Shown here in pieces: positions 9,821 through 44,511 of a stretch of 64,000 nucleotides of DNA. Within the stretch, counting starts at the first letter, position 1, and every line of letters begins with the position of its first letter. Under the pieces are notes generated by a model that was not told the origin of the DNA, did not search any database, and worked only from the letters and a program-made list of their open reading frames with translations. A program made the position numbers and the translations under genes. This stretch comes from Clostridia bacterium (GTDB taxonomy: Bacteria > Bacillota > Clostridia > Oscillospirales > CAG-272): NCBI GenBank assembly GCA_017646005.1, contig JAGCNJ010000041.1, positions 3,363-67,362 of the forward strand, given 5' to 3'.

Positions 9821-9849
9821 TTGACTAATCAACTTTTTAATGGTATAAT
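9821..9849 (+). promoter_or_regulatory. sigma-A-type promoter of 9891-13850
   Basis: TTGACT (9821-9826), 17-nt spacer, TGgTATAAT (-10 at 9844-9849). Confidence 0.7.
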
Positions 9850-9890
9850 TGCTCTGTAATACTTTTAAATTACAGGAAAGGAAAAACAAA

Positions 9891-13946: not shown

Positions 13947-13980
13947 CATAGTGTATATTTTTACATTGAGGAGATATTAT

Positions 13981-21664: not shown

Positions 21665-21693
21665 TTGACTTTAATCAAAAACTGTGTTAAAAT
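21665..21693 (+). promoter_or_regulatory. sigma-A-type promoter of 21734-25714
   Basis: TTGACT (21665-21670), 17-nt spacer, TGtTAAAAT (-10 at 21688-21693). Confidence 0.6.
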
Positions 21694-21733
21694 CAAAATG
21701 TGGAATATTATATTTTTGAAAGGACGCTCCATT

Positions 21734-24700
21734 ATGAAAAATAACGCTCGTTTTGTTTCACTGATTCTTTCACTTATTATGATTTTTTCTGCAATGCCTG
21801 CATTTTCGGCATCGGCAGAAGAAGCAAGCTACAAGATGCTCCCGGCAAGCGACTTGTTCTATTACTACGCTTCCCCGAGTGATCTTGAAACCACTCTCGT
21901 TGATACAGACGGCGGCTACGTACACTACGTTGCCGCGCCCGGCACTTACAACAATAACAACATTATGTTCACCGTAGGATACGGCGAGCTTGCAGCACTT
22001 GATTATCCTTATGCTGTCGTAGGCTACCGTACAAACTCCCAGCGTAACAGCATTGACGTCGGTCAGAATAACCGCTTGGGAGAAAACTGGATGAATAATA
22101 ATCCCGCTCAGAAAACAGACGGTTCATGGAGCACCCTTTTTATAAATATAAACGACATTAACGGCAACACCCAGCCCAATCTTCCCAAGCCGGGCGAAAC
22201 CGAGGTTACCTTGAGATTCAAGCCCTGGGGAAGCCATACCAAAACGCTCGGTGTTGAACAGTATTACGATCTGCGTTTCGTCGCTTTCTTCAAAAATGAG
22301 GCAGAGGCAAAGGCGTTCAAATTCGATCCGAACACAAAATATGAATCCGAAATATCGCCTGAGTATATGGAAAACATTCCTTACCACGAGGCAACAGATG
22401 AGCTTATAAACAAGTATTTGGCAGAAGCAGAGGCTCTTAAGGAATCTATCATAAATTCCCCCTCAAGTGTAAAGTGGACAGGTACTGCTTACTACGTTTC
22501 ACCTAAGGGTAACGATGAAAACGACGGTCTTACACCTGCTACAGCATTCAAGACAGTAGACAAGGTATCACACGCATCCTTCTTAAAGGAAGGCGATGCC
22601 GTGCTTTTCGAGCGTGGCGGCACATACAGAACCACAGGCTACCTCGCGACCAAAAACGGTATCACTTATTCCGCATACGGCTCGGGCGCAAAGCCTAAGA
22701 TAATCGGCTCGATAGATGCTTCCTACGAAGCATTATGGAGAGAGACCGAGCATGAAAACGTATATGCGTTCACGCCAAACGTCGGCGGTGCCGGATACGA
22801 TATCGGTCAGATCGTATTTGATATGGGCAAGGCGTGGGGCATCAAGCTTCAGAACGGTCTGTGGATCGGTACAAACTCAAACGGACTTGGTATAATCGAA
22901 AGCGGAACTCCCATAATCGACGGTCCTGAGGACATTAAGCACGACCTTGAATATTGGCACGACTGGGACAGAGGTACTGTATACCTTTACAGCAAGGACG
23001 GCAACCCCGCTTCGCGCTTTACATCGATCGAGATCGTTGATAAGGGCAACGGTATCAGCGGCGGTGCTAACAACGTAGTTATCGACAACCTCGAGCTTTT
23101 CGGCTTCGGAAGCCACGGTATAGGATACGGTGGTATTGGCGATGCTGCCAAGCAAAACCTTACGGTACAGTACTGCATATTCAGCTTTATAGGCGGTTCG
23201 CGTCAATATACAGACCCGTCTGTAAATACCCGCTTCGGTAACGCTGTGGAAATATACGGCGCTGCAAAGGGCTTTATCATCCACGACTGCTATGCCAACA
23301 ACGTCTACGACTGCTGTTGGACAATTCAGTATCAGTCAGACTCCGAGGGCGTTGACGTATGGTTTGAGGACGTTGAATTTTACAACAACGTAGCCTGCTA
23401 TTCAAATACCGGTCTTGAGGTATGGCTCAACAATAAGGCAGAGTACAATAACGACGCTGTCTACGGTATGAAGAATATGCGTCTCCACCACAACTACACC
23501 TACTACAACGGCTACGGCTGGAGCCAGCAAAGACCTAATAAGGACGGTAACATTTTCTACGGCGACCCGAGTGTTACAAACACGGTTTATGAAAACTGCT
23601 CGGTAGATCACAACGTAGGCTTGTTCGCATCCAAGTGGATAAATTACCTGCGCTACGTAGGCTCGAACTACTACAACTTCAACAACAACGTATATTTCCA
23701 GCACGAAAACAAGCTTTACGGCGGCGTACCTGCTAACCCCGAAAAGGGTACGGGAGCTGTCGGTCAACACAAATACGAGCGCGCTACGATGTCAAGGCTT
23801 CTTGCCACAGGCTTTGAAAAGGGCTCTGTGTTCTATTACACCAAGGAAGACTACAAGATCCCGCAGTATGATCCCGCACTTGTAAGCTTTGATGATATTA
23901 CAGAAAAGCACTGGGCTTACGATTACGTCAAGACCGCGGTTATGAGAAACTATTTCAATGGTACTGCTCCCGCAACCTTCTCGCCTGACACATCAATGAC
24001 CCGCGCAATGCTCGTTACCGTGCTTTCGCGTATCACAAACGAAAAGGCTGAAAGCAAAAAGGCTACCTATACTGACGTTAACGCATCCGCTTGGTATGCA
24101 AATGCGGTAAACTGGGCTTACAGCGCAGGGCTCGTTGCAGACGGTATTACAAAATTCCGTCCCGACGATGCAGTAACGCGTGAGGAGCTTGCAGATATGC
24201 TCTACCGACTCACGCTCAATCAGTATAAGACAAACGAATATGACGGAAAGGCTCTTGATTTCTCGGATGCATCAAGCGTATCTCCCGAATACAAGGCAGG
24301 TGTTGCCTTCGCTACAGACATCGGCGTTATTTCGGGCTACACCGACGGAAGTGTAAAGCCGAAGAATACGGCTACACGCGCCGAGGTAGCAACAATGATC
24401 TGCAGATTCGTTCAGAAGTATTACGGCTTTGAAACAGACTTCAGCAAAATGAGTGACGCGACCGACAGCAAGATATTTGCAGGCAATGAATTAAACGCAA
24501 TACTTGCAACCTCTCCCGGTGACAAGCGTATGATGAATAAGGATACCGAAAATCCCTTGGTAAGACTTATTCCTCAGCATATATCACAGTCGTCCGCAAA
24601 GCCTCAGCTGCTTATTTTCGAGCGCATCTCCAATGTGGACTTTGCAAAATATCCCTACATCAAGCTCAGAATGAAGACAACAAGCACAAGCACCGGCTTT

Positions 24701-25714
24701 AAGCTCTGGATGAACAAAAACGGGGCATCCGGCGAAATAATCGCTCCTATTGTGACCGATGAATGGTGTGACGTTGTTGTCTGCATCTACGATATAATCA
24801 ATCCTGATACCGAGATATACAATGGTGAGCTTAATGCTTCGCTTTATATCTCCCCGTGGTCCGAGATTGTCGCTCCCGGATACAATGTCGATTACTGCGA
24901 TATCGAATACATAGGCTTCTTCCCCACTAAGGCGGCAGCGCAGGCTTATCAAAGCGATTTCCAGAAAAATTCGGTAACCGTAACCTATATGTTCGGAAGC
25001 ACAGAGGTTACCTCCCTTCCCACAAAAAAGGGTCAGACCCTTACCTACCCGAACATCACACCCTCAAGAAAGGGCTACACCTTCAAGGGCTGGGATATAG
25101 CAGAGGGTACTGTTATAAACGATAATCTTACCGTAAACGCTGTATTTGAAAAGACTCCCGGTGTACCTATGGCAGTATTTACCGCTGACAACACCGAAAG
25201 CACCGCAACCGGCGGACTCAGCTCCGAAACAGTGGAAGAAAACGGCATAAAATACGTACACTTCTACGTTCCCGATGAGGTTTCCTCCAAGGATGGTACA
25301 CGCGCAAACCTTATCCTTTCGGATTCGGAAGCATACAACGTAGCCACCGCCCCCATAATCAAGATTTGCTACAGGACGAACATCGCTTCATCAAGTGCGA
25401 TCGACTTCAACCTCAGACCCGATCAAGGCAATCGCTTATGGGGACCGTTTGTTGATTATGCAGGCAAGGGCGAATGGGTCGAGCAAATAATCGACCTTTC
25501 GAAGCTTGGTTGGAACGGAGGCGAGGATGTTGTGCCAAATCTCACAAGCGAAGAATACTTCAACGAGTATTTTAAGGACACACTTTACTCCTTCATTTTC
25601 AAGCCGTACAAGTCTAACGGACTTTTGATGAGAAAGGACGAATACTTCGATTTCAAATACGTTGCATTCTTTGAAACCGAAGAGGATGCGAAGATTTATA
25701 AATTTGATAAATAA
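21734..25714 (+). CDS. giant secreted beta-helix protein, SLH-anchored paralog (N-module, beta-helix, 3xSLH, C1, Lis/Bac-like repeat, C2)
   Basis: I moved the start to ATG 21734 (MKNNARFVSLILSLIMIFSAMPAFSASA). The track TTG start at 21665 is the first base of a TTGACT -35 box. SLH triad at ~23882-24425. Ends YFDFKYVAFFETEEDAKIY. Confidence 0.88.
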   Translation: MKNNARFVSLILSLIMIFSAMPAFSASAEEASYKMLPASDLFYYYASPSDLETTLVDTDGGYVHYVAAPGTYNNNNIMFTVGYGELAALDYPYAVVGYRTNSQRNSIDVGQNNRLGENWMNNNPAQKTDGSWSTLFININDINGNTQPNLPKPGETEVTLRFKPWGSHTKTLGVEQYYDLRFVAFFKNEAEAKAFKFDPNTKYESEISPEYMENIPYHEATDELINKYLAEAEALKESIINSPSSVKWTGTAYYVSPKGNDENDGLTPATAFKTVDKVSHASFLKEGDAVLFERGGTYRTTGYLATKNGITYSAYGSGAKPKIIGSIDASYEALWRETEHENVYAFTPNVGGAGYDIGQIVFDMGKAWGIKLQNGLWIGTNSNGLGIIESGTPIIDGPEDIKHDLEYWHDWDRGTVYLYSKDGNPASRFTSIEIVDKGNGISGGANNVVIDNLELFGFGSHGIGYGGIGDAAKQNLTVQYCIFSFIGGSRQYTDPSVNTRFGNAVEIYGAAKGFIIHDCYANNVYDCCWTIQYQSDSEGVDVWFEDVEFYNNVACYSNTGLEVWLNNKAEYNNDAVYGMKNMRLHHNYTYYNGYGWSQQRPNKDGNIFYGDPSVTNTVYENCSVDHNVGLFASKWINYLRYVGSNYYNFNNNVYFQHENKLYGGVPANPEKGTGAVGQHKYERATMSRLLATGFEKGSVFYYTKEDYKIPQYDPALVSFDDITEKHWAYDYVKTAVMRNYFNGTAPATFSPDTSMTRAMLVTVLSRITNEKAESKKATYTDVNASAWYANAVNWAYSAGLVADGITKFRPDDAVTREELADMLYRLTLNQYKTNEYDGKALDFSDASSVSPEYKAGVAFATDIGVISGYTDGSVKPKNTATRAEVATMICRFVQKYYGFETDFSKMSDATDSKIFAGNELNAILATSPGDKRMMNKDTENPLVRLIPQHISQSSAKPQLLIFERISNVDFAKYPYIKLRMKTTSTSTGFKLWMNKNGASGEIIAPIVTDEWCDVVVCIYDIINPDTEIYNGELNASLYISPWSEIVAPGYNVDYCDIEYIGFFPTKAAAQAYQSDFQKNSVTVTYMFGSTEVTSLPTKKGQTLTYPNITPSRKGYTFKGWDIAEGTVINDNLTVNAVFEKTPGVPMAVFTADNTESTATGGLSSETVEENGIKYVHFYVPDEVSSKDGTRANLILSDSEAYNVATAPIIKICYRTNIASSSAIDFNLRPDQGNRLWGPFVDYAGKGEWVEQIIDLSKLGWNGGEDVVPNLTSEEYFNEYFKDTLYSFIFKPYKSNGLLMRKDEYFDFKYVAFFETEEDAKIYKFDK

Positions 25715-28154: not shown

Positions 28155-28167
28155 TCTCGCGTTTTTG
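28137..28167 (+). terminator. rho-independent terminator overlapping the ispD stop codon
   Basis: AACGCGAGAT / ATCTCGCGTT stem followed by TTT. Confidence 0.65.
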
Positions 28168-28237
28168 GTATACTTGCACGTTTGTCGGGAATAATACAGG
28201 TGCATACGCAAACGAACAAAAATATATAGGAGTAGTT

Positions 28238-30242: not shown

Positions 30243-31733
30243 TTATCTCTTTCTTACAAAATATACCTTCGGCGAGATCTCTTCCAAGCTTTCGAGTATC
30301 TCCAATGCGTTATCTGTAAACGTATACTGAACCGCATTAGGCGAGCCTATCTTGGTAAGATTATTACCCTTTACCTGCACATAGGTATTTCCCTCAAAGT
30401 CCGGCAGCCACTTCTCCTCTTTTGCGCCAAGGTCACAGGCGTTATATCTGTCAAGAAGGAAGATATTATTCTTTATCACAAAGCCATCAGAGAGGTTGTT
30501 TGCATCCCATCCCTTTATGCTTGCCGCACGCTCGGGATTCATTCCCCATCCGTGACCCGAATAAGCAAGGATATTATCCGAATACACGATATTTTCCATT
30601 TTATGCGGGGTAAAGTATTCAATATTGTATATACACTTTTCAATTACGTTATTTGTAAAATATACGTTTTTCTGAAGAACCTCGTTCTCTCTTCCATATT
30701 GATGCGTGATACCCGCGTCATAGCACTGATATACGTAGCAATTATCTATCGTAAAATTCTCGCATCCGCCGTATATCTCAATACCGTTACCGTAGCGGAT
30801 TATGTATCCGTTAGTATAATACTGTGCCGAGCCGCCGACAAAGCCGACCTCACAGTTGCGTACCGTCACGTCATTGACAGTACCCATGCCAATTCCGTGG
30901 CTTCCCGAATATTTTATGCACAGATTATCAAAGGTACAGCCCGATGCTCCGCGTATAAGATTGCCTCTGTATGCAAGCTCGATCGAATCGTAAACCTCAC
31001 CCGGATTGCCCTCGTCACATCTTAAATAAAGGCGCGTTTTGGTATCAAGGTCTGCCGCGCTTTTTCCTACCGCGAGATATTCGCAGACAAAAAGCTCGTT
31101 TTGATAAAATGAACTTTTCAGATCAAAAGGTTTGCCATTGATCGTAACGTAAAACTTCTTGTTGTCTACGCTAAGCAACATCTTCTCTGCCGTCTTCTCA
31201 CCGCCGTTGAGTATGATATTTCCCACGTCAAGGATATGCTCCTTATACTTCCATATGTTTTCCGTGCCCTCAACCAGCTCCCATTTATCGGGATCTGCCG
31301 CATCACCGAAGGTGTTTCCGTTAAAGATCGGCTTATCGCCCTCTCCGTATGCAGAATATGTAATACCGGGGGCAGCCGTAAAACGTTCACGCCACATATC
31401 TCCGCGTCGGAACAACACAACGTCGCCTGCTTTTATCGATACTGCATTCTGAAGACTTGTAAGCTTTCTTATGGTCTTTATGGGAGTTTCGGGGCTTTTT
31501 CCGTCGTTATTGTCGTCACCGTCGTTTGATACGTAATATACCGTTCCGTTTTCGCCTACCTCATACTCGCTTTCGGTTGCGCGTATTTCAGCTACACGCT
31601 CGCGGAGCTTTTTTTCACACTCAAGTGCAAATATTTCGTCCTCTGTAGGCTCCGGATCAAGAAAAAACGCGCATCCCGCAAGCAAGATAACAGATAGTGC
31701 CAGAAAAATTGAGCAAAGCATTTTTATTCTCAT
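30243..31733 (-). CDS. lipoprotein carrying the family beta-helix core only
   Basis: Start at the second in-frame ATG (MRIKMLCSIFLALSVILLAGC, lipobox LAGC), using the GGAG inside the track extension as its SD. Motifs GTVYYVSNDGDDNNDGKSPETPIKT, GDVVLFRRGDMW, ITYSAYGEGDKPIFNG and NLCIKYSGSHGIG match the giant paralogs. Confidence 0.8.
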   Translation of the reverse strand: MRIKMLCSIFLALSVILLAGCAFFLDPEPTEDEIFALECEKKLRERVAEIRATESEYEVGENGTVYYVSNDGDDNNDGKSPETPIKTIRKLTSLQNAVSIKAGDVVLFRRGDMWRERFTAAPGITYSAYGEGDKPIFNGNTFGDAADPDKWELVEGTENIWKYKEHILDVGNIILNGGEKTAEKMLLSVDNKKFYVTINGKPFDLKSSFYQNELFVCEYLAVGKSAADLDTKTRLYLRCDEGNPGEVYDSIELAYRGNLIRGASGCTFDNLCIKYSGSHGIGMGTVNDVTVRNCEVGFVGGSAQYYTNGYIIRYGNGIEIYGGCENFTIDNCYVYQCYDAGITHQYGRENEVLQKNVYFTNNVIEKCIYNIEYFTPHKMENIVYSDNILAYSGHGWGMNPERAASIKGWDANNLSDGFVIKNNIFLLDRYNACDLGAKEEKWLPDFEGNTYVQVKGNNLTKIGSPNAVQYTFTDNALEILESLEEISPKVYFVRKR

Positions 31734-31760
31734 AACAATCTCCATTTATTATTTTTTATA

Positions 31761-31789
31761 AGTATATCACAAAACCATCTCAAAATCAA
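31761..31789 (-). promoter_or_regulatory. sigma-A-type promoter of the beta-helix lipoprotein gene
   Basis: The minus strand reads TTGATT, 17-nt spacer, TGaTATACT. Confidence 0.55.
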
Positions 31790-31791
31790 GC

Positions 31792-31823
31792 AAAAAAAAG
31801 AAGCGGTATTCCTACCGCTTCTT
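31792..31823 (-). terminator. terminator after the DUF1540-like gene
   Basis: The minus strand reads AAGAAGCGGTA-GGAA-TACCGCTTCTT followed by TTTTTTGC. Confidence 0.75.
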
Positions 31824-31829
31824 CCCTGC

Positions 31830-32015
31830 TTACTTACAGCCGCAGTTATCGCTCTTACATTCAAATGACATACAGTCGGTACACTGATCGACTGTAGGGT
31901 TTGCTTCATGAGTACCTACCTTGATTACGTCAAGAGAGCAATAGTTTACGTTCTGACAGTGATTCTTACACTGTGTTACACTGCATTCGATTGACTTATT
32001 TGCCTTATCGTTCAT
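31830..32015 (-). CDS. DUF1540-like Cys-rich small protein (61 aa)
   Basis: MNDKANKSIECSVTQCKNHCQNVNYCSLDVIKVGTHEANPTVDQCTDCMSFECK shows the repeated C-x-C pattern. RBS GAAGGGAG. Its own terminator lies downstream. Confidence 0.65.
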   Translation of the reverse strand: MNDKANKSIECSVTQCKNHCQNVNYCSLDVIKVGTHEANPTVDQCTDCMSFECKSDNCGCK

Positions 32016-32102
32016 AATGATCTCCCTTCTGCCCGCGTTTAATGCGGCACATAAAAAGTATGCCCTCACAAGCGAAATTTCATACACTTGTGAAGGCATT
32101 TT

Positions 32103-32930
32103 TTATATAATGAGATATTTTTCGCGCAAAAGCATCGCCGCGCCCGTATATTCAAGCTCTTTCGCTTTTGTATCGCTTACAGAGCTTGCGTTTATATTTT
32201 CAAGCTCAAGCTCGGAATAAACTTCATCCGCTGACAAAAATTCAATTATCGCCCCAAGCTTGATCTCAAGCTCTTGCTTATCCTTTGCACATACAGCGCC
32301 AAGCACAGGCTCACTTCCTTTATACGCAACAAGTGCACCACATCCGGCTTTGGATACGTACAAGGCAGAGGCTTCTTTGACAGCGCTTAACTTCGCAAGC
32401 TCGCTTTTACAGACCTCACTCACCTTTAATGAAAGTGAAGCGGCGATATCATCCGAAAGCCTTTGACAAAACTCCCTGTCAGCGTCTTCACTGTAAACCG
32501 AACACACGCCGACAAGTCTTCCGACAAGATTGTTTTCAAATACAAACGGCATCAACGCTTCCATAACCGCTCCTGCCGCGCCGTTTTTCTCAAACGTGAA
32601 CTCAAGCTCACCAAGCTTTTCAAGGGTAAGGCTTAAGATGACCAACTTTATCTTTTCTTTATGCAAAGCAAGAACTATCAGCTTTTTTTCGTCCGAAAGG
32701 CTTATATGCTTCGCCTTTCTTCCTACTCCGCCACCCTCTGATTTTGCGTAGGTGACCGTTCCCTTTTCAAGCAAGGCATCGGTTATCTTTCCTACGGTCA
32801 TAAGGCTGAGTCCGGTCTTTTCCGATATTTCAAGACGGCTGATATGTCGGTCTTCGGGAATGCACGAAAATATTCTTTTGATGCTCTCCTGTCTTATTCT
32901 GTCAAGACCAAAATCCTCCAACCTTACCAC
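32103..32930 (-). CDS. ROK-repressor-like protein (N-terminal winged HTH; sugar-kinase half looks degenerate)
   Basis: ISRLEISEKTGLSLMTVGKITDALLEKG...GGGVGRKAKHISL resembles ROK repressor N-termini. I could not see a DxGxT ATP motif or a Zn-Cys motif. The start is uncertain (GTG 32930 or TTG 32921). Confidence 0.5.
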   Translation of the reverse strand: MVRLEDFGLDRIRQESIKRIFSCIPEDRHISRLEISEKTGLSLMTVGKITDALLEKGTVTYAKSEGGGVGRKAKHISLSDEKKLIVLALHKEKIKLVILSLTLEKLGELEFTFEKNGAAGAVMEALMPFVFENNLVGRLVGVCSVYSEDADREFCQRLSDDIAASLSLKVSEVCKSELAKLSAVKEASALYVSKAGCGALVAYKGSEPVLGAVCAKDKQELEIKLGAIIEFLSADEVYSELELENINASSVSDTKAKELEYTGAAMLLREKYLII

Positions 32931-32951
32931 CTCGCTTTATCTTTTTTTATT

Positions 32952-34526
32952 TTATCTTTCGTTTTCGTAGCGCATATGGTGATAGAATCTGTTTTCACCT
33001 ATACAACCGCCATCGATAAGCATCTTAAGTGTTTCATCGTCATATCTGTAAAGCTTGAAGCCACCCTTGGCGTTTTCATAATCCTCACCGAGCTTTGAAA
33101 ATTCCGAATTGTACGGCTTGATTATTACGTTGTTTCTCCAATTAAAGCCGAGTCCCTGCTTTACACTTGTAGGTACTGCAAGATGCACGAAAAGTCTTAT
33201 GTACCACATAAAGTTGTTTTCGATATACGCATCCTCGTACATTGCCATAGTCTCACCGGCACCATAGAACATATTGTAATTAGCCTTCTGATGCACGTAT
33301 CCGCCAAAGCCATAGCCGGCATAACGGCAAAGATTATCGTAAAGGCGTATGTTTGTGAGTATTGCGTATGAGGTGTCTGTCTTTTCCCACGTGGTAAGCC
33401 ATACCTCCATCGGGCTGTCGCAACGCTCAATAGCATTTGCATATATCATGATATCGCGTTCGATAACAGTTTCGGGCTGATTCTGGTATTCGTTATCTGC
33501 CGTCTTAAGATGTCCCTGACACTGAATAGTAGGACCGCAATCGAATGCCTGATAGATGTAGTTGTTGTAGATCTGATAATTATCACAGCCACCGAAAATT
33601 TCGATAGAATTACCGAATCTTGTCGGCCAGTAGTTACGGATAAACTGTATCGAGCCGCCGATCCATCCCACCTCGCAGTTGCGCACAACAAGATCCTTTG
33701 CCGTGCCTGCGCCCATACCGTGCGACGCACCGTAACGGATGCAGAGGTTATCAAGAGTGATACCCGACTTACCGCTGATGACGTTGCCCTTCATACAAAG
33801 CTCTATAGAATCGAATATCTCACCGGGGTTACCGTAAAGCGAGCAGATGAAAAGCTCACTTGTATGATGGTTGAAGTAATATTCAAGGTTATATCTTAAA
33901 TCGTTGGCATCGGCAAATTTATCCTCGCCGCGCACCCAGAATTCCTTGCCGTTTGAGGTAAGTCCGTTATAGCCTCTGTGTATGCAAATATCCTTTTGCT
34001 CGTACTTCATTATACGCGCGCCAAAGTATTCACCGTGGTTAAATACGATATTACCTACGTCATTTGCAACTCTCATGTTACCGTTTTCGTCCATAGGCTC
34101 GTTTGCCGCAATAAAGCCTGTGTACTTATATATGTACGGATGTTCACCCCACTGCTTCCAGTCAGAGGGCTTCGATGCCTCGATGGAGCCGCAGATCATC
34201 GGCTTTGCGCCAAATCCGTATGCGGAATAGGTAACGTAGGGCTTTGACAGAATGCGCTCATGCCAAACGTCGCCACGCTTCATAAGAACTACGTCACCGG
34301 GGTTCAAAAGTCCGTCCGCGTTGATTTTTGCAAAGCTTGCAAAGGGCTTTTCTTCGGAGAGACCGTCGTTATTATCATCACCATCGTTGGCAATATAATA
34401 AATCTTTCCGCCCTCACCGAGAGTCCATTCGCTCTTGGTTGCAAGTATCTTATTCTTTCTTGCCTCAAATTCAGCATCAAGCACCTTTATCATTTCGCCT
34501 GAAGCAGGTTTTATTATCTGTTCCAT
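32952..34526 (-). CDS. beta-helix core paralog without signal peptide (predicted cytoplasmic)
   Basis: MEQIIKPASGEMIKVLDAEFEARKNKILATKSEWTLGEGGKIYYIANDGDDNNDGLSEEKPF, GDVVLMKRGDVW, VTYSAYGFGAKPMICGS, VRNCEVGWIGGS and YIYQAFDCGPTIQ. No hydrophobic N-terminus. Confidence 0.8.
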   Translation of the reverse strand: MEQIIKPASGEMIKVLDAEFEARKNKILATKSEWTLGEGGKIYYIANDGDDNNDGLSEEKPFASFAKINADGLLNPGDVVLMKRGDVWHERILSKPYVTYSAYGFGAKPMICGSIEASKPSDWKQWGEHPYIYKYTGFIAANEPMDENGNMRVANDVGNIVFNHGEYFGARIMKYEQKDICIHRGYNGLTSNGKEFWVRGEDKFADANDLRYNLEYYFNHHTSELFICSLYGNPGEIFDSIELCMKGNVISGKSGITLDNLCIRYGASHGMGAGTAKDLVVRNCEVGWIGGSIQFIRNYWPTRFGNSIEIFGGCDNYQIYNNYIYQAFDCGPTIQCQGHLKTADNEYQNQPETVIERDIMIYANAIERCDSPMEVWLTTWEKTDTSYAILTNIRLYDNLCRYAGYGFGGYVHQKANYNMFYGAGETMAMYEDAYIENNFMWYIRLFVHLAVPTSVKQGLGFNWRNNVIIKPYNSEFSKLGEDYENAKGGFKLYRYDDETLKMLIDGGCIGENRFYHHMRYENER

Positions 34527-34573
34527 AATTTTCCCTTTCCTTATGTCAGATTATATTTTACCGCTGTGCGGCA

Positions 34574-36154
34574 TCAGATACAGTTAAATCTCTCGTCCTC
34601 GGAGAACATATAATGGTAGAAGTTGTTTTCTCCGAAGGCACCTGTTTCGTACATTTTATCTATTATCTCATTAGTATAAGGATATGTGACCGAAGGGTCA
34701 AGTGAACGCTCAAGATCTGCTCCCATACGCGAAAATTCGGATGCGTAGGGCTTGATTATCGTATTCTTTCTCCAGTTATAGCCAAGTCCGTTACGGGTGT
34801 TTACCGGAACTGCAAGTGCTATCAAAACACGGGCGTGCCACATAAAATTATTTTCAACAAACGCGTCCTTATACGTTGCTTCGGTGTGACCTCCGCCGTA
34901 GAACATATTGAACATCGTTTTATAATGTACGTAGCCGCCGAAGCCGTAGCCTGCATATCTGCAGAAGTTGTCAGACATTACAATATCCTCAAGTATAGCA
35001 TATGTCTCTTCGTTCTGCTCTGTCTGAGTGGTTATCCATACCTCCATCGGACTGTTGCAACGCTCAATAGCATTACCGCAAACTCTTATATGGAGATTAT
35101 GCTTTCTTTTCTGATCTTCCTTTTGAGTTGTAAGATCTCCCTGCCACTGCACGGTAGGTCCGCAATCAAACGCTTGATATATGTAGTTATTAACGATCGT
35201 GTAATTCTTCGCAGTTCCGAAAATTTCAATTGAATTTCCGTATCTTGTAATATGCGTGGGGCTGATATGCTGTACAGCACCGCCTATCCAGCCGACCTCG
35301 CAGTTACGAACGGTAAGGTCAATACAGTTGCCGCCTCCGACACCGTGCTGTGCGCCGTAAAGGATCGCAAGATTATCAAGGGTCGCACCGTTTGCAATTT
35401 GCACGACGTTTCCCTTTTTTGCAAGGTCTATTCTTTCGTAGACCTCGCCGGGATTACCGTATACGCTCACAAGATAAAGCTCACCGTTTAAGATATCGTA
35501 ATAATATTCAAGGTCGTGGGAAAGATCCTGCGGTCCCGTAAATTTCGTTTGCGGCTTATACCACACCTCTTTACCGTTTGACACCATATTGCCTCTGCCC
35601 ACAAGTCTTGCGTAGCCAGGCTTTACCGGATCCTCGTATACTCTGAGTGCGTAGGCTTTGCCATCGTCAAAAATGATATTACCTATATCAAAATTTGGTC
35701 TTCCGTGTCCGTTTTCGTCAAGAGACGTGCATTTGTCAAGCGGATGCGCGTATTTATATATACAACGCTTATCGTTCCACAATACCCAGTCTTTTGGATT
35801 TGACGCATCTACCGAGCCGCAGATCTTGGGCTTATCGCCCTCACCGTATGCTGAATAGGTAACATACCTCTTGGAAATCAGACTTTCATGCCATCTGCCT
35901 CCCCGCTCGAAAAGCACGACGTCACCCTCGTTGAGAAGCCCGTCAGCGTTTATAAGCGCGAGTGTACGGAAAGCATTTTCCGGGCTTTTTCCGTCGTTGT
36001 TATCGTCGCCATTTTCGCTTACGTAGTAGATTGTACCGTTTTCACCGAGAGTCCACTCGCTTTTAGTTGCTCGGATCCTGTTTTTACGCGCTTCGAATTC
36101 GGCGTCGAGTGCCTGAATCATCTCCTGCGACGCCGCTTTGATATGCTCTGTCAA
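34574..36154 (-). CDS. beta-helix core paralog without signal peptide (predicted cytoplasmic)
   Basis: Close paralog of 32952-34526 (EMIQALDAEFEARKNRIRATKSEWTLGENGTIYYVSENGDDNNDGKSPE). I prefer TTG 36154 (giving MTEHIKAAS, which aligns to MEQIIKPAS, with GGGGG 9 nt upstream). The track ATG at 36169 has no SD and sits inside an operator-like palindrome. Confidence 0.75.
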   Translation of the reverse strand: MTEHIKAASQEMIQALDAEFEARKNRIRATKSEWTLGENGTIYYVSENGDDNNDGKSPENAFRTLALINADGLLNEGDVVLFERGGRWHESLISKRYVTYSAYGEGDKPKICGSVDASNPKDWVLWNDKRCIYKYAHPLDKCTSLDENGHGRPNFDIGNIIFDDGKAYALRVYEDPVKPGYARLVGRGNMVSNGKEVWYKPQTKFTGPQDLSHDLEYYYDILNGELYLVSVYGNPGEVYERIDLAKKGNVVQIANGATLDNLAILYGAQHGVGGGNCIDLTVRNCEVGWIGGAVQHISPTHITRYGNSIEIFGTAKNYTIVNNYIYQAFDCGPTVQWQGDLTTQKEDQKRKHNLHIRVCGNAIERCNSPMEVWITTQTEQNEETYAILEDIVMSDNFCRYAGYGFGGYVHYKTMFNMFYGGGHTEATYKDAFVENNFMWHARVLIALAVPVNTRNGLGYNWRKNTIIKPYASEFSRMGADLERSLDPSVTYPYTNEIIDKMYETGAFGENNFYHYMFSEDERFNCI

Positions 36155-36168
36155 AAAAATCGCCCCCA

Positions 36169-36216
36169 TATACTGTATATTAACTAAATTATACAGTATA
36201 ATAGGGACGATTTCAA
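36169..36216 (-). promoter_or_regulatory. promoter of the cytoplasmic beta-helix gene pair, overlapped by an 11-bp-arm inverted repeat
   Basis: The minus strand reads TTGAAA (36216-36211), 17-nt spacer, TATAAT (36193-36188). Inverted repeat TATACTGTATA (36169-36179) and TATACAGTATA (36190-36200), 10-nt spacer, spanning the -10 box to about +20. Confidence 0.55.
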
Positions 36217-36239
36217 GCCTTTTATCAAATTATTACAAT

Positions 36240-37058: not shown

Positions 37059-37073
37059 AATTTTCCTCCGGGT

Positions 37074-40160: not shown

Positions 40161-40191
40161 TGTTTTACCACCTTTATATCTTTATATTAAG

Positions 40192-40220
40192 AGTATACCA
40201 AAACAGATCATATTTTGCAA
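40192..40220 (-). promoter_or_regulatory. sigma-A-type promoter of the GHL10-amidase gene
   Basis: The minus strand reads TTGCAA, 17-nt spacer, TGgTATACT. Confidence 0.55.
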
Positions 40221-40271
40221 GTACAATTTCTTACAAAAAAGTAAATATTTCCCTATTGTCTACCAAACAAC

Positions 40272-40305
40272 GAGAAAAAGCATACCGCTCACAACGGTAT
40301 GCTTT
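40272..40305 (-). terminator. terminator after the small-ORF pair
   Basis: The minus strand reads AAAGCATACCG-TTGTGAG-CGGTATGCTTT followed by TTCTCG. Confidence 0.65.
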
Positions 40306-40822: not shown

Positions 40823-41623
40823 TCACTTACTTCGTGATCTTTTCACTACAGACGGAGGCTTACCGAAGGTCTTTTTATATTGCTTGAAAAATCCCGAATA
40901 ATCACAGAAACCGCATTCAAGAGCCGCCTCGGTAGGAGATTTGCCGTCAAGAATTTTTTCATTTGCAAGCGCAAGCCTTTTCTTTAGCACGTACTTATAA
41001 AGAGATATATTCATTTCACGTCTGAAAGCGTGAGAAATTCCCGACTCCGAAATATTAAGATCAGCCGACATCAGCTCAAGTGTTATCCGCTCGTGTATGT
41101 TCGCTTCTATCCATTCAATGCATCTCTGTACCGTATCCGACCTGCCTGAAAAATCCCCATCTAGCCTCTTAGCACGCCTTATTTCATATACAAGAAGCGC
41201 GCCTGCGGCAAAAGCAAGCGTTTCTGCCGTTTTATCATTTTCAAACTCACGGGCTGTATTTATAAGTCTTTCAAGAATAGGGCTTATCTGCTCGTTTATC
41301 TCGCATATGAAAGTTTTTTCAAAGCTGCCTGCGAAAAGCTTATCAAGCTCGGATTCACTATCAAAATGTATCACCAGCCTGTGATATTTTTCAACATCCC
41401 TCGTGACATTAAGCTGATGATAACACTGCTTAGGTATGACCAAGAGCGTTTTCGGTTTAAGTTTGAGATGAAGATTATCAGAAACAAAATCAGCCTCTTC
41501 TCCTATGAAATATATTATCTCATTGTACGGATGAAACTCCCGTCCCACAACGTCGCTTGCGCCCTTTGCATATTTGACGGATATCCGGTCGCTTTTTATA
41601 ATTTTCTTAAAGCCGTTGCTCAT
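40823..41623 (-). CDS. AraC-family transcriptional regulator (cupin-like N-domain plus C-terminal HTH)
   Basis: SESGISHAFRREMNISLYKYVLKKRLALANEKILDGKSPTEAALECGFCDYSGFFKQYKKTFGKPPS. I moved the start to ATG 41623 because the track TTG start at 41683 is the first base of a TTGACA -35 box. Confidence 0.85.
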   Translation of the reverse strand: MSNGFKKIIKSDRISVKYAKGASDVVGREFHPYNEIIYFIGEEADFVSDNLHLKLKPKTLLVIPKQCYHQLNVTRDVEKYHRLVIHFDSESELDKLFAGSFEKTFICEINEQISPILERLINTAREFENDKTAETLAFAAGALLVYEIRRAKRLDGDFSGRSDTVQRCIEWIEANIHERITLELMSADLNISESGISHAFRREMNISLYKYVLKKRLALANEKILDGKSPTEAALECGFCDYSGFFKQYKKTFGKPPSVVKRSRSK

Positions 41624-41654
41624 TATTTCCCTGCCGCCTACAAAAGTTTTTTTA

Positions 41655-41683
41655 ATTATACACGCCTTTTGCAGTAATGTCAA
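41655..41683 (-). promoter_or_regulatory. consensus promoter of the AraC-family gene
   Basis: The minus strand reads TTGACA (41683-41678), 17-nt spacer, TATAAT (41660-41655). Confidence 0.65.
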
Positions 41684-41874: not shown

Positions 41875-44511
41875 ATGAAAAGATTTTTTGCCATGCTGCT
41901 TGCCATTATCATGATCGCAACAGCCACACCGATGATGTCTCATGCGGATGAGGCTCCCGAAAAAACGCTCTTTTCGGCGTATGACATCTACTACGATGCA
42001 CAGATCGCGAACTTCACCACCGTTCAGCCCGTGCTTGAAATTTCGGACGGCGTACCCTACGCTTCCATGAAGGCTGAGCCCGGCACCTACGGCAACGGCG
42101 CACTTATGATGACGATAAAATCAAGCGCGCTCAAATTCAACGTGACCGAATATCCGTTCATTGCCGTCGGATACAAAACAGATGCGGTAACTCCCGGTGT
42201 CGATATCACTATGATGTATGACAACAATGAAACCTGGAGAAAAGAGGGCGGTTCAAGATACAAGATAACAAGCAACGGAAAGCTTGAAAAGCTTATATGC
42301 AATGCGCTCGATCTCAACGCCAAGGTGGAAATCAAGCCCGATTATCAGGGCATTGATATCAGACTGAAATTCTGGGGCGGTCATACGCAGGTGCTTTCAA
42401 CCAACCAGTATTTCGACGTTGCTTACATAGCCTTTTTCAAAACGCTTGATGAGGCAAATGCTTTCGTGTACAATCCCATAACCGAAGAAGAATACTTTGC
42501 AGAAAGTGACCTCAAAATAGTAAATAAGACCGTCACTGACGTTGATGAAAATACACTTCTCTCTTATCTTGCTCAGGCAGAAGCGCTTAAGTACGATATC
42601 ATCAACACCCCCAACACAGAATTCCCTCAGGCTAAAAAGACATATTACGTTTCGCCCGACGGCGATGATAACAACGACGGTCTTTCACCCGAAACAGCCT
42701 GGAAATCGCTTGAAAAGGTCGGAAGCGCAACCTACGGAAAGGATGACGTTGTACGCTTTAAGCGCGGCGGGATCTGGCGCGGTACTCTTAATCTTAAAAA
42801 CGGTGTGATCTACTCGGCTTACGGCGAGGGTCCCAAGCCCGAAATTTGGGGCTCTATCCCCGGCGAGGGCGCAGAAAATTGGGAGCTCACAGATGCTCCC
42901 AACGTATGGGCGTTCACAACGCCCCTTGAAAACGACAAGCACCCCGGAAACATCGTATTTAACGAGGGCGAAGCCTGGGGCATCCACGTTTACACCGACG
43001 GCAAGGGCAACAGACACGATCAGGGTACTGTTTTCAACGGAATCGAAACGGTTGAATGTCCCCCTACCCCTTACACAGGCTACAAGGATATCTTCCACAA
43101 CAATCTTGAATTCTGGTACGACGAAGAAGCAAAGACCGTGTATATGTACTGCGAATACGGCAACCCCGGAGAGTATTTTGATGACATCGAATTATCCCTT
43201 CGCCCCGATATGGTCAGCGGAGGAGGAAAATATATCATTTTCGATAACATCTGCCTTAAATATGGCGGCGGTCACGGAGTATCCGTTATGAACAGCGAAA
43301 GCGTCACGGTGCAGAATTGCGTGTTCGGCTGGCTCGGCGGAGGCGGACTCGGTAACGCCGTTCAGAACTGGGACAACTGCAAGGACTTCACGATCAATCA
43401 CAACTACGCTTATCAAATATACGACTGTGCGTGGACCACGCAGTCAAGCGTTACCTATGCCGACAGAACGATGGTGGACGTTGTTATGACAAACAACATC
43501 TCAGAGCGCTGCAACACGGGTGTTGAGATATGGCTGAGCGGTGACAACACCGACAAAAAGGGACTCCTTAAAAACTTTACCGTAGAAAACAACTTCACTC
43601 TCTACGGCGGGTGCGGCTGGAGCCATCAGCGCCGCCGCGATATCAAGGACGGCAACTTCGTTTTCGGAGGCACGGGAATTGACAGAGTCGTTTCGCGTGA
43701 AAATATGCATTTTGAAAACAACGTAAACATCCACGCAACACATATCGGACTTTATGCACGCTTCATAGGTCCTGCCGGCTTTATGTTCGACAACAACGTG
43801 TATATGATGCAGAGAGGCAAGTCGATGGCTTCTGCCGCATCAAATCTCAAGGACGGAAGCGGCTCGCTTATCAGATATCCCTACGATGAAAAGGGGATTT
43901 CCACGCTTGCCACGCTCGGCAACGACGTAAACTCCACCTTCTACTATCTCGCCGATGACTTTGAGCCGCACACAGACTCAAAGCTTCAGGACTTCACAGA
44001 CGTATACGGGCATTGGGGACTTGAAAATATCAGCTTTGCAGTAATGAAGGGACTCTTCTCGGGCACTACCGATACGACCTTCTCACCCAACGCGCCTATG
44101 ACGCGTGCAATGCTCGTAACCGTGCTTTCTCGCCTTGCAGGTGACGTTGATACCAATGCTGTATCGGGCTTCTCCGACGTAAAGGCTGACGCATGGTACA
44201 CATCTGCGGTAGCATGGGCAGAGGCTAAAGGCATCGTTGACAAGGGCGCTTCCTTCAGACCCGATGCCAACGCTACCCGTGAGGAAATGGCTGATATGCT
44301 CTACCGTTTCGCAAAAGCTTACGGTAAGGACACAAGCAAAAAAGCTGAACTTAAATTCACGGACGCTTCAAGCATCAAATGCAAGGACGCCGTCGCTTAT
44401 TGCGTAGGTGCCGGCATCATCGCAGGCTATAGCGACAACACCGTCAAGCCCGCAGGCGAGGCTACACGCACCGAGGTAGCTACGATGCTTAAGAGATTCA
44501 TCTTCGCTTGA
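41875..44511 (+). CDS. secreted beta-helix paralog with N-module and C-terminal SLH triad (no C modules)
   Basis: RBS GGAGG. Signal peptide MKRFFAMLLAIIMIATATPMMSHA. N-module ending YFDVAYIAFFKTLDEANAF. Cap motif TYYVSPDGDDNNDGLSPETAWKS. SLH triad at ~43984-44508 ends the protein. Confidence 0.88.
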   Translation: MKRFFAMLLAIIMIATATPMMSHADEAPEKTLFSAYDIYYDAQIANFTTVQPVLEISDGVPYASMKAEPGTYGNGALMMTIKSSALKFNVTEYPFIAVGYKTDAVTPGVDITMMYDNNETWRKEGGSRYKITSNGKLEKLICNALDLNAKVEIKPDYQGIDIRLKFWGGHTQVLSTNQYFDVAYIAFFKTLDEANAFVYNPITEEEYFAESDLKIVNKTVTDVDENTLLSYLAQAEALKYDIINTPNTEFPQAKKTYYVSPDGDDNNDGLSPETAWKSLEKVGSATYGKDDVVRFKRGGIWRGTLNLKNGVIYSAYGEGPKPEIWGSIPGEGAENWELTDAPNVWAFTTPLENDKHPGNIVFNEGEAWGIHVYTDGKGNRHDQGTVFNGIETVECPPTPYTGYKDIFHNNLEFWYDEEAKTVYMYCEYGNPGEYFDDIELSLRPDMVSGGGKYIIFDNICLKYGGGHGVSVMNSESVTVQNCVFGWLGGGGLGNAVQNWDNCKDFTINHNYAYQIYDCAWTTQSSVTYADRTMVDVVMTNNISERCNTGVEIWLSGDNTDKKGLLKNFTVENNFTLYGGCGWSHQRRRDIKDGNFVFGGTGIDRVVSRENMHFENNVNIHATHIGLYARFIGPAGFMFDNNVYMMQRGKSMASAASNLKDGSGSLIRYPYDEKGISTLATLGNDVNSTFYYLADDFEPHTDSKLQDFTDVYGHWGLENISFAVMKGLFSGTTDTTFSPNAPMTRAMLVTVLSRLAGDVDTNAVSGFSDVKADAWYTSAVAWAEAKGIVDKGASFRPDANATREEMADMLYRFAKAYGKDTSKKAELKFTDASSIKCKDAVAYCVGAGIIAGYSDNTVKPAGEATRTEVATMLKRFIFA

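Follow-up and report, generated by a model that had tools for sequence, protein, structure and literature searches.

Among the closest described systems are the GH136 lacto-N-biosidases, which are documented inside the cell in R. hominis and outside it in B. longum and R. inulinivorans, the leaderless enzymes being active intracellularly (PMC7335108). In Gram-positive polysaccharide-utilisation loci, such as the HMO and mannan loci of Roseburia/Eubacterium, a surface enzyme is combined with an ABC importer, cytoplasmic glycosidases and a local regulator. The window, which is the whole 64,000-nucleotide stretch analysed here of contig JAGCNJ010000041.1 from an uncultured gut member of the Clostridia, contains ten ORFs with a common right-handed beta-helix core of ~500 aa (Table 1). 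It also includes a spoIIIA operon.

The ten cores are paralogous. In BLASTP searches against all window ORFs, the three short proteins (the lipoprotein and the two leaderless copies) gave E values of 1e-40 to 1e-75 across 350-530 residues. The leaderless copies 32952-34526 and 34574-36154 share 54% identity (BLASTP), and the core alignment puts their identity at 35-36% with the lipoprotein and at 27-33% with the SLH and dockerin cores. The module starts with an N-terminal helix, followed by a YYVS..GDD.NDG cap and a right-handed parallel beta-helix. An earlier sequence-only reading had proposed four common motifs; a motif search found all four, but not each of them in every copy. YY[VI]..[DN]GDD.NDG is present in the three short proteins and 41875-44511, whereas GD.V.F.RG, [VI]TYSAYG.G.KP and GSHG[IM]G each occur in seven of the ten copies, the leaderless proteins having ASHGMG and AQHGVG at the position of the last motif. 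The family-invariant residues are retained in all ten cores; D329, Q335, E374, N398 and the remaining invariants are intact in both leaderless copies and in ~100 leaderless homologues. Loss of conserved residues from the short proteins, which that reading had named as evidence against itself, did not occur, and since the leaderless copies keep every invariant, they are not obviously pseudo-enzymes.

The proposal that one homologous core occurs in four localisation formats was borne out, with six SLH triplets, one dockerin, one lipoprotein and two leaderless proteins. Localisation was assigned from hydropathy (the maximum 12-residue Kyte-Doolittle value within the first 50 residues), the lipobox pattern and orthologue starts. 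All five array proteins, and also 41875-44511, have three SLH repeats each, and the type I dockerin of 44872-49752 scored 26.9 bits against a cutoff of 22.9. The lipoprotein N-terminus, MRIKMLCSIFLALSVILLAGC, comprises a charged n-region, a hydrophobic core and an L-A-G-C lipobox. Maximum hydropathy was 0.6-0.8 in the two leaderless proteins (0.61 for 32952-34526) versus 2.8-3.2 in the eight exported copies (2.82 for the lipoprotein).

Signal peptides missed through wrong starts or frameshifts would make the leaderless format an annotation artefact, which we regard as barely credible. With the longest-possible ORFs taken, stop codons occur in frame 8 and 22 codons ahead of the leaderless ORFs, the intergenic gaps around these genes are just 47 and 70 nt, and orthologues in at least 12 other, independent assemblies begin at the same conserved helix. 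The ATG of 32952-34526 is preceded by a ribosome-binding site (GGAAAGGG), and its orthologues (65-89% identity) have the identical start. No support for an artefact was found, the sole ambiguity being the start of the second copy (ATG 36169 or TTG 36154); neither start yields a signal peptide, and TTG is favoured by the alignment to orthologue L012_b (81% identical) and by a GGGGG motif located 8 nt ahead of it. With stop codons in frame close upstream, and with a start residue shared by the orthologues, the pair has no room for a signal peptide. Revision of the starts exposed no upstream in-frame signal peptide, and as judged from their sequences both copies are genuinely leaderless.

Table 1. 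Beta-helix proteins and neighbouring features of the window
Feature	Coordinates	Strand	Evidence
SLH-array beta-helix protein 1	1668..5627	+	core homology (BLASTP), three SLH repeats
SLH-array beta-helix protein 2	5786..9766	+	core homology (BLASTP), three SLH repeats
SLH-array beta-helix protein 3	9849..13850	+	core homology (BLASTP), three SLH repeats
SLH-array beta-helix protein 4	13951..18420	+	core homology (BLASTP), three SLH repeats
Leaderless GH2, beta-mannosidase-type domains, within SLH array	18544..20931	+	Glyco_hydro_2_N2 E 4e-44, Ig_mannosidase, Mannosidase_ig
SLH-array beta-helix protein 5	21665..25714	+	core homology (BLASTP), three SLH repeats
Lipoprotein beta-helix protein, 496 aa from MRIKM...	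30243..31733 (ORF to 31745)	-	lipobox LAGC
Hairpin + T8, terminator-like, after HTH gene	31792..31825	-	read directly from sequence
Winged-HTH protein, 275 aa, last gene of leaderless unit	32103..32930	-	HTH_24 E 1e-5
Leaderless beta-helix protein 1, 524 aa, predicted cytoplasmic	32952..34526	-	
Leaderless beta-helix protein 2, 526 aa from TTG 36154	34574..36154 (longest ORF: ATG 36169)	-	
Sigma-70-like promoter match TTGAAA-17-TATAAT, 11/12, before leaderless gene 2	36188..36216	-	consensus match only
Short Gfo/Idh/MocA-like protein, 272 aa	36240..37058	-	Pfam 26.3 bits vs cutoff 24
Membrane-anchored GHL10 + Amidase_3 protein, 1028 aa	37074..40160	-	GHL10 E 3e-62, Amidase_3 E 3e-35
AraC-family regulator, divergent from SLH beta-helix gene 41875	40823..41683	-	HTH_18 E 4e-16
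SLH-anchored beta-helix protein, 878 aa, core ~210-704	41875..44511	+	three SLH repeats, core E 1e-44 to 1e-49, signal peptide
Dockerin beta-helix protein, 1626 aa, core ~564-1065	44872..49752	+	type I dockerin, Big_2, GDSL-like below Pfam cutoff

The AF2 model of 32952-34526 is a beta-helix (pLDDT 94.2, pTM 0.94). Its best Foldseek matches were all beta-helix glycoside hydrolases (GH120, GH141, GH136 and GH110), with E values of 9e-11 for XylC 3vst, 1e-8 for BT_1002 5mqp and ~1e-7 for the GH136 enzymes LnbX/ErLnb136/TnX, and with low TM-scores (0.26-0.48). The label "pectate-lyase fold" given previously to the module is correct as a fold name, but these matches are hydrolases and not lyases. 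No Pfam family covers the beta-helix module, none of the Pfam pectate-lyase families matched, and no characterised member of its family was found in Pfam, NCBIfam, PDB or literature searches. Most likely the module cleaves glycans, more probably as a glycoside hydrolase than as a lyase. We infer catalytic activity, with D329 and E374 as putative catalytic carboxylates.

A PL9-like polysaccharide lyase acting by beta-elimination, which we consider rather unlikely, would parallel the classical pectin pathway with its exported endo-lyases and cytoplasmic exo- or oligo-lyase; this alternative concerns the chemistry and is compatible with an outside-to-inside model. For the rhamnogalacturonan lyase 5olq there is a profile match to the N-terminal cap (E 2e-3), and Foldseek retrieved it (E 4.6e-4) as well as Pel9A 1ru4 (2e-3), both with probability 1.00, although the eleven best Foldseek matches are all hydrolases. 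The invariant basic residues R84, K108 and R303 would fit a lyase, but R84 and K108 fall within the region common to GH136 hydrolases and are therefore probably structural. Likewise, Bacteroidota homologues adjoin UxaC (7 loci) and KduI (3 loci), KduI being present also in locus L002. However, most of the UxaC cases come from a single synteny block conserved in Alistipes that also includes FKBP and DUF3127, a pattern pointing to inheritance and not to function, and UxaC is apparently on the opposite strand in the gene tables examined. No Ca-binding Asp cluster was identified in the module.

The module family is widespread in gut bacteria, and its commonest architecture is the leaderless single-domain protein with the core at residue 1 (102 of 273 members, ~37%). 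Leaderless and exported copies are mixed in 14 of the 19 multi-copy Firmicutes loci, and the NJ tree requires at least 47 exported/leaderless switches versus a mean of 89 with shuffled labels. With identities of 27-39%, the formats belong to separate old clades. The syntenic orthologue of the window lipoprotein in the sister species is an SLH-anchored protein of 895-909 aa with a 62% identical core, and in GCA_052836505.1 SLH and dockerin proteins with cores 38-43% identical to the window leaderless copies stand beside a leaderless copy. Neither these counts nor the two forms of GH136 bear out the claim that it is unusual for surface beta-helix enzymes to have paralogues in the cytoplasm. The four-format mix is real, yet it is a normal habit of the module family and its nearest known relatives, not an oddity.

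We incline to the reading that the module is a glycan-cleaving enzyme working in the ordinary glycan-utilisation logic of Gram-positive bacteria, with exported and cytoplasmic copies, and a sequential outside-to-inside catabolic pathway is plausible. The six SLH-anchored copies, the dockerin copy and the lipoprotein would be deployed at the surface and cut the polymer outside the cell, the fragments would presumably be imported, and the two cytoplasmic leaderless copies would finish them together with the leaderless GH2. As the formats are old subfamilies of separate descent, they probably do not duplicate a single activity but prefer different linkages or chain lengths. The GH2, GH3, GH36, GH127 and GDSL esterases found alongside are a hint that the substrate may be an acetylated heteroglycan of plant type.

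The pathway is supported by the position of the leaderless GH2 (N-terminus not hydrophobic, hydropathy 1.27) inside the SLH array, by the 14 mixed multi-copy Firmicutes loci, and by the same-strand clusters of L069 and L074, in which two leaderless copies and lipoprotein copies accompany ABC permeases, a solute-binding protein, an aldose epimerase and GH36. Among other relatives, L001 contains GH3, GH2 and AraC, and L002 contains GDSL esterases. Several observations argue against the pathway. A Pfam scan of window ORFs of at least 200 aa (and one 124-aa ORF), together with the 10 kb that follow the right end, detected no sugar importer of the ABC, PTS or MFS type. The formats fall into separate old clades, which leaves the single glycan class of the sequence-only reading a conjecture. 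The leaderless pair belongs to a conserved gene cluster behind the GHL10-Amidase_3 gene in this species and its sister, and close orthologues of the leaderless gene are often solitary, surrounded by housekeeping genes: some lie near enolase/IspD/VanY, others between EamA and an AI-2E transporter. A neighbour-gene census of 21 Firmicutes loci revealed no single conserved partner of leaderless copies.

The sequence-only reading had placed three further genes with the leaderless copies. The AraC regulator is solid, and AraC regulators are also found near family members in L001, L002 and L008. The "ROK-like regulator" 32103-32930 does have a winged HTH and a NagC/ROK-like N-terminus (NagC match limited to residues 10-118; PDB 2hoe match N-terminal only), but a ROK sugar-binding domain is missing; L012 and L008 have a homologue after the leaderless gene (40% and 28% identical, respectively). 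Similarly, the Gfo/Idh/MocA-like assignment of 36240-37058 stands barely above the Pfam cutoff, but covers profile positions 41-114 only, with the N-terminal GxGxxG loop absent and weak PDB matches; an unrelated 523-aa protein replaces it in the sister species. The GHL10-Amidase_3 protein, the first gene product of this minus-strand cluster, has an N-terminal hydrophobic anchor. The terminator-like hairpin has the sequence AGAAGCGGTA-GGAA-TACCGCTTCT-TTTTTTT and was absent from the consensus-scan list.

In three species the HTH gene is conserved immediately after the leaderless gene, which might point to leaderless copies that are not cytoplasmic enzymes but non-catalytic binding or regulatory partners of the HTH protein. 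Signal-peptide-independent surface or spore proteins, such as coat proteins made by the mother cell of a spore-former, would fit the spoIIIA operon, as well as the DUF1540 gene and spore-related genes of related loci. Both versions are very unlikely: D329, Q335, E374, N398 and the other invariants persist in these copies and their homologues, the promoter match is of the vegetative sigma-70 type, relatives' leaderless copies lie within sugar-importer clusters, and leaderless GH136 enzymes act intracellularly (PMC7335108).

The same neighbourhood would also suit a wall-glycan turnover or recycling module composed of GHL10-Amidase_3, the leaderless beta-helix genes and the NagC-like HTH, and aimed at a peptidoglycan-linked or secondary cell-wall polysaccharide, the cell's own or its neighbours'. 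The membrane enzyme would free fragments for uptake and cleavage by the cytoplasmic beta-helix enzymes, and the wall instead of the diet would be the target of the SLH, dockerin and GDSL proteins. In the sister species, the order GHL10-Amidase_3 (75% identical, same position), two to three leaderless copies and HTH is conserved; VanY is nearby, GHL10 adjoins family members in two Bacteroidota loci, pyruvyl transferase and glycosyltransferases occur near some homologues, and the regulator N-terminus is NagC-like. Also on this side, the GHL10 protein Cwp19 of C. difficile acts on peptidoglycan as a lytic transglycosylase, and the esterases for O-acetyl-peptidoglycan belong to the SGNH/GDSL enzymes. 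We nevertheless find wall turnover unlikely. Genes typical of dietary-glycan use, namely GH36, GH127, GH2, GH3, aldose epimerase and sugar ABC importers, stand beside other relatives, no MurNAc/GlcNAc catabolic genes (nagA/B, murQ) were present among the scanned ORFs, and the sigma-70-like match in the 70-nt gap suggests that the leaderless unit may be transcribed apart from GHL10-Amidase_3.

In structure the module is matched best by the beta-helix glycoside hydrolases XylC (GH120, 3vst) and BT_1002 (GH141, 5mqp), but they show no detectable sequence similarity to it (TM-scores 0.34-0.48, identity 9-12%). XylC is a cell-associated or intracellular exo-enzyme with an extra beta-sandwich domain that the window module lacks. 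PL9/PL1 pectate or rhamnogalacturonan lyases share the fold class and the weak cap match to 5olq (E 2e-3); their Foldseek matches (4.6e-4 to 2e-3) are weaker than those of the hydrolase families, and the lyase catalytic machinery is not identifiable in the module.

GH136 lacto-N-biosidases (LnbX of B. longum, ErLnb136, RhLnb136, RiLea/b136, TnX and BsaX) share with the module the right-handed beta-helix fold and a homologous N-terminal helix, cap and first coils (YYVS..GDD.NDG, GD.VL..RG, YG.G.KP). The family profile matched GH136 structures with E values of 6e-20 to 5e-14 across the N-terminal 100-210 positions (phmmer E 5e-9), and the homology is confined to the N-terminal third of the module; the NCBIfam LnbX model likewise matched N-terminally only, at 21-31 bits against a cutoff of 2500. 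In contrast, the C-terminal two thirds, where GH136 has its catalytic Asp pair (D568 and D575 in ErLnb136), show no alignment; the module family conserves no two Asp residues at a spacing of 7, and its invariant acids in that region are D329 and E374. No GH136-I/LnbY-type helical partner gene was recognised beside the module, which models confidently alone. In both systems intracellular leaderless and extracellular anchored forms are found, for GH136 in ABC-importer loci of gut Firmicutes/bifidobacteria (PMC7335108).

Like Gram-positive polysaccharide-utilisation loci, the window has surface-anchored and cytoplasmic enzymes, an AraC-type regulator and a leaderless GH2. It differs from them in that no importer was found among its scanned ORFs, whereas its relatives L069 and L074 show the full layout including the ABC importer. 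It differs also in that its cluster is headed by a GHL10-Amidase_3 wall-hydrolase-like protein, and in that a single family, expanded to ten copies, supplies both the outer and the inner enzymes.

The ~500-aa right-handed beta-helix core is common to ten ORFs of the window, as found by BLASTP of the three short proteins against every large ORF (E 1e-40 to 1e-75 over 350-530 residues). In core alignments, the two leaderless proteins share 54% identity with each other, 35-36% with the lipoprotein copy and 27-33% with the SLH and dockerin cores; the five-member SLH array is 54-68% identical internally. Ten paralogous cores in four localisation formats had been claimed from the sequence alone, and this claim is borne out by BLASTP, Pfam, hydropathy and lipobox analysis. 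The four short motifs then quoted for the core are present in the copies for which they were cited, but not all four occur in each copy.

Coordinates of the beta-helix genes and neighbouring features in the window
Feature	Position	Strand	Remarks
SLH array, five proteins	1668-25714	+	~1320-1490 aa
GH2 protein	18544-20931	+	between 4th and 5th array genes; beta-mannosidase-type domains, no signal peptide
VanY-IspD-enolase	25721-29470	+	
Lipoprotein copy	30243-31745	-	500-aa ORF; lipoprotein at 30243-31733
Winged-HTH protein	32103-32930	-	275 aa
Leaderless 1	32952-34526	-	~525 aa
Leaderless 2	34574-36169	-	~525 aa
Gfo/Idh/MocA-like protein	36240-37058	-	272 aa; Pfam
GHL10 + Amidase_3 protein	37074-40160	-	1028 aa; N-terminal membrane anchor; GHL10 E 3e-62, Amidase_3 E 3e-35
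AraC regulator	40823-41683	-	Pfam; divergent from SLH gene at 41875
Sixth SLH protein	41875-44511	+	
Dockerin copy	44872-49752	+	
Second dockerin protein	49856-53881	+	1341 aa
spoIIIA operon	53989-58638	-	AA, AE, AF-like and AH recognised
Full-length Gfo/Idh/MocA pair	62402-63580	+	tandem, at and just past right end (window 62402-63580 and L093 11369-12520)

Six proteins carry a signal peptide (N-terminal hydropathy 2.8-3.1) and three tandem SLH stretches each (Pfam SLH, E 1e-29 to 6e-34). In the array proteins the SLH triplet lies mid-protein, from about residue 600-800, and the several hundred residues C-terminal to it show weak matches only (Flg_new, SGBP_B_XBD); three of the five have an extra ~200-aa N-terminal domain ahead of the core. 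The dockerin copy bears a type I dockerin at residues 1561-1614 (Pfam Dockerin_1, 26.9 bits against a cutoff of 22.9) and a sub-cutoff GDSL match. The second dockerin protein has no beta-helix core; it shows a solid GDSL esterase domain, Big_2 and a weak match to the hyaluronate-lyase N-terminal beta-sheet, and GDSL esterases recur beside family members elsewhere (L002 and two Bacteroidota loci). The lipoprotein copy starts with MRIKMLCSIFLALSVILLAGC, a textbook lipoprotein leader (hydropathy 2.82) composed of the n-region MRIK, the h-region MLCSIFLALSVIL and the lipobox L-A-G-C, which fits the pattern [LVI][ASTVI][GAS]C.

The eight exported copies reach a maximal 12-residue hydropathy of 2.8-3.2, the two leaderless proteins one of 0.6-0.8. 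Upstream extension of the leaderless ORFs is blocked by in-frame stops 8 and 22 codons 5' of the gene starts, and more than 12 orthologues from independent assemblies start at the same conserved helix (IIKPAS.EMIKALDAEFEARKN.IL.TKSEW). The stops and the matching start residue of the orthologues rule out missed signal peptides, and the leaderless assignment of both copies therefore survives revision of their starts. For leaderless 2, the orthologue alignment favours the proposed TTG at 36154, and neither candidate start yields a leader. The 60-sequence family alignment contains 23 invariant columns (including R84, Y103, K108, W123, R303, D329, Q335, E374 and N398), all of which are kept in nine of the ten window copies, the exception being the SLH protein at 41875 with Gly in the R303 column. 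Both leaderless proteins are among the nine, so the short proteins retain the residues conserved in the giant cores and, at the sequence level, their interpretation as degenerate pseudo-enzymes is rejected.

AlphaFold2 modelling with the family alignment produced a confident monomer (pLDDT 94.2, pTM 0.94) in which an N-terminal helix precedes a long beta-helix, with regular short strands at residues ~240 to 495. Every significant Foldseek match is a beta-helix protein, which identifies the fold as a right-handed parallel beta-helix. The Pfam Beta_helix model scores below its cutoff (23.3 bits against 25.9 for the lipoprotein; E 0.12 for leaderless 1), and leaderless 2 has no Pfam match even at E<=10. 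The best Foldseek matches in the PDB are beta-helix glycoside hydrolases throughout: XylC (3vst, E 9e-11) and BT_1002 (5mqp, E 1e-8), members of GH120 and GH141, respectively, several GH136 lacto-N-biosidases (E ~1e-7) and several GH110 structures (E ~1e-5). The rhamnogalacturonan lyase 5olq and Pel9A (1ru4), both PL9 lyases, matched with E 4.6e-4 to 2e-3 and TM-scores of 0.27-0.44. None of the Foldseek matches is a close relative, because their TM-scores are low (0.26-0.48). With regard to PL9 and PL1, the N-terminal cap alone matches 5olq, weakly (profile E 2e-3), and hydrolase chemistry appears a better guess for the family than lyase chemistry.

When 1.84 billion cluster representatives were scanned exhaustively with HMMER, 4172 matched the family at E<=1e-3 and 427 did so at E<=1e-30. 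Homologues in the databases bear the names 'hypothetical' or 'right-handed parallel beta-helix repeat-containing protein'; no Pfam family, NCBIfam name or solved structure was found for the family, and a full-text literature search revealed nothing relevant on its characterisation. In a leaderless subgroup of homologues (P0015-P0018, about 752-755 aa), the core is preceded by ~240 additional N-terminal residues (MINLITEQSKRKNADGILY...), without signal peptide or Pfam match.

It is routine for Gram-positive gut bacteria to use members of a single enzyme family at the cell surface as well as inside the cell. In a census of 273 members (263 database proteins and the ten window copies), the commonest architecture was a single-domain protein whose core begins at residue 1 and which lacks a hydrophobic leader (102/273). 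Exported and leaderless forms are intermixed on a rough NJ tree, which requires at least 47 switches against a mean of 89 for shuffled labels and places the window copies in no fewer than four separate clades. Among GTDB species genomes, 559 relatives were identified by scanning; the best 79 loci are mostly from herbivore hindguts and Hadza gut samples. Their hosts are uncultured Clostridia, Eubacteriales, Oscillospiraceae and Acutalibacteraceae on the Firmicutes side and, for example, Alistipes, Rikenellaceae and Prolixibacteraceae on the Bacteroidota side. Among these 79 loci, the Firmicutes copies comprise 54 exported and 31 leaderless forms, and 14 of the 19 Firmicutes loci with at least two copies (within ±8 kb) mix both; 25 of the 28 Bacteroidota copies have a leader, the other three being borderline. 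A format switch is seen in the sister species (MAG RGIG4639, roe-deer rectum), where the syntenic counterpart of the window lipoprotein is SLH-anchored (895-909 aa, core 62% identical). In GCA_052836505.1, SLH and dockerin proteins with cores 38-43% identical to the window leaderless copies lie beside a leaderless copy. The sequence-only reading had called cytoplasmic paralogues of surface enzymes unusual; the 102 leaderless members, the 14 mixed loci and the spread of GH136 enzymes over both compartments refute this, and the localisation pattern itself is ordinary.

The leaderless genes belong to a minus-strand block of seven genes (30243-41683), in which gaps of 15, 70, 47 and 21 nt separate the five genes between 40160 and 32103. 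The HTH gene is followed by a hairpin with a T8 run, and the last gene, encoding the lipoprotein, has its own promoter-like site and terminator. According to Pfam, the leaderless pair is adjoined by the HTH protein and the Gfo-like protein. The former had been labelled ROK-like, a name that does not hold: apart from an HTH_24 domain, the protein resembles NagC over its first ~118 residues only (26 bits, cutoff 650), and with just 275 aa it has no ROK domain. The Gfo-like protein scores 26.3 bits (cutoff 24) over profile positions 41-114 only, GxGxxG is missing from its N-terminus MKKIGFVDYYLSEWHAN, and a C-terminal domain was not matched; it is unrelated to the tandem full-length pair at the right end of the window. 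In the slot of this gene, the sister species (L012, 4962-6533, +) encodes a 523-aa leaderless protein (MGEKLYNNIELPDVWPPQYPTE...) with no Pfam match, no PDB sequence match and no window homologue.

The GHL10-Amidase_3 protein heads the leaderless-gene cluster and has an Ig-like region between its domains; its nearest NCBIfam model, CwlD, is below cutoff, and its sister-species counterpart is 75% identical and identically placed. The leaderless genes follow this gene in both species (with three leaderless copies in the sister species, not two), and three species share the downstream HTH protein. This conserved cluster leaves room for a role in wall-glycan turnover, with which the presence of GHL10 beside family members in two Bacteroidota loci is also in line. 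However, the 70-nt gap between the Gfo-like gene and the first ~525-aa gene contains a strong sigma-70-like match (TTGAAA-17-TATAAT), which weakens the link to GHL10-Amidase_3. We consider improbable the full version of this idea, in which the leaderless pair, GHL10-Amidase_3 and the NagC-like HTH protein would constitute a conserved unit that turns over or scavenges the wall glycopolymers of bacteria, all ten copies together with the GDSL esterases and VanY would target bacterial cell-wall polysaccharide and not dietary fibre, and the beta-helix module would be the first member of an enzyme family that is new, has its root near GH136 and differs from it in its catalytic centre.

VanY-IspD-enolase is a conserved chromosomal anchor (the window, L007, L008, L011 and L012) around which the beta-helix genes vary by species, from one leaderless gene, through leaderless and dockerin proteins, to the full expansion of the window. 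The closer orthologues of the leaderless gene keep a syntenic position near enolase, IspD and VanY, often standing alone among housekeeping genes, and the surroundings look like a variable island at a fixed site. The spoIIIA operon follows directly after the dockerin genes, and the organism is therefore a spore-former. A spore-coat role for the leaderless copies, suggested by this operon, is rejected, as nothing speaks for it and the promoter match is of the vegetative type.

For the locus as a whole, the proposed outside-to-inside glycan pathway is reasonable by analogy, as it fits the general logic of Gram-positive glycan utilisation. Surface enzymes would cut the polymer outside, an ABC system would take up the fragments and cytoplasmic enzymes would complete their breakdown. 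Two loci from Oscillospiraceae and Acutalibacteraceae (L069 and L074) encode on a single strand two ABC permeases, a solute-binding protein, aldose 1-epimerase, two leaderless copies, a PGA_cap protein, GH36 and lipoprotein copies. Other leaderless homologues adjoin GH3, GH2 and AraC (L001), or GDSL esterases and AraC (L002), and the GH2 protein of the window is predicted to be a second cytoplasmic glycosidase within a locus of surface proteins. Neither the scanned ORFs of the window nor the 10 kb beyond its right end yielded a sugar importer. A Pfam census of neighbour proteins (107 from Firmicutes and 109 from Bacteroidota) revealed no single conserved partner gene beside leaderless homologues. 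The Bacteroidota signal in this census (FKBP, DUF3127 and UxaC) looks like Alistipes synteny: the Alistipes/Rikenellaceae homologues (among loci L029-L089, e.g. L033, L037, L042, L047, L071), all ~495-aa lipoprotein or signal-peptide forms, share a conserved gene neighbourhood that contains FKBP isomerases, DUF3127 and the glucuronate isomerase UxaC (7 loci). KduI was found in three loci, and the UxaC/KduI adjacency is either a weak hint of uronate-containing substrates or synteny only. Because the formats are only 27-39% identical to one another and fall into different clades, the proposed action of all formats on one glycan class is a guess.

The value of these results lies in the family, which is large, unannotated and strikingly expanded here, with ten copies in 64 kb, and whose hosts are uncultured herbivore- and human-gut Clostridia and Bacteroidota. 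If it represents a new glycoside hydrolase or lyase family, this would provide a function for thousands of 'hypothetical' or 'right-handed beta-helix repeat' proteins and would also indicate a glycan in which these uncultured organisms specialise. The small, confidently modelled leaderless copies are the easiest entry to biochemistry.

Among known systems, GH136 bears the clearest resemblance to the family, whose profile matches GH136 structures with E 6e-20 to 5e-14 over the N-terminal 100-210 positions. The GH136-like stretch comprises the helix, the YYVS..GDD.NDG cap, GD.VL..RG and YG.G.KP. However, only profile positions ~19-250 of 484 are similar, not the whole domain, and the NCBIfam LnbX model scores 21-31 bits against a cutoff of 2500, at the N-terminus only. 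In ErLnb136, the catalytic pair D568/D575 consists of an Asp acid/base and an Asp nucleophile 7 residues apart (PMC7335108). The GH136 region bearing this pair does not align with the present family, and the invariant and nearly invariant columns of the 60-sequence alignment include no two Asp at a spacing of 7. In the corresponding region, D259, E309, D329 and E374 are the acidic residues that are conserved, and of these D329 and E374 are the invariant carboxylates. For the obligatory helical partner of GH136, a subunit or domain (GH136-I/LnbY), no gene was recognised beside the leaderless pair, where Pfam shows the HTH and Gfo-like proteins, and the beta-helix protein models confidently without one. 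GH136 membership is rejected in view of homology limited to the N-terminal third and the absence of a conserved D-x6-D pair, and on these sequence grounds we treat the module as a putative uncharacterised family that shares its N-terminal region with GH136 but lies outside it. In localisation, GH136 offers a parallel: the R. hominis enzyme has no signal peptide or transmembrane segment and degrades imported substrate intracellularly, whereas those of B. longum and R. inulinivorans are extracellular (PMC7335108).
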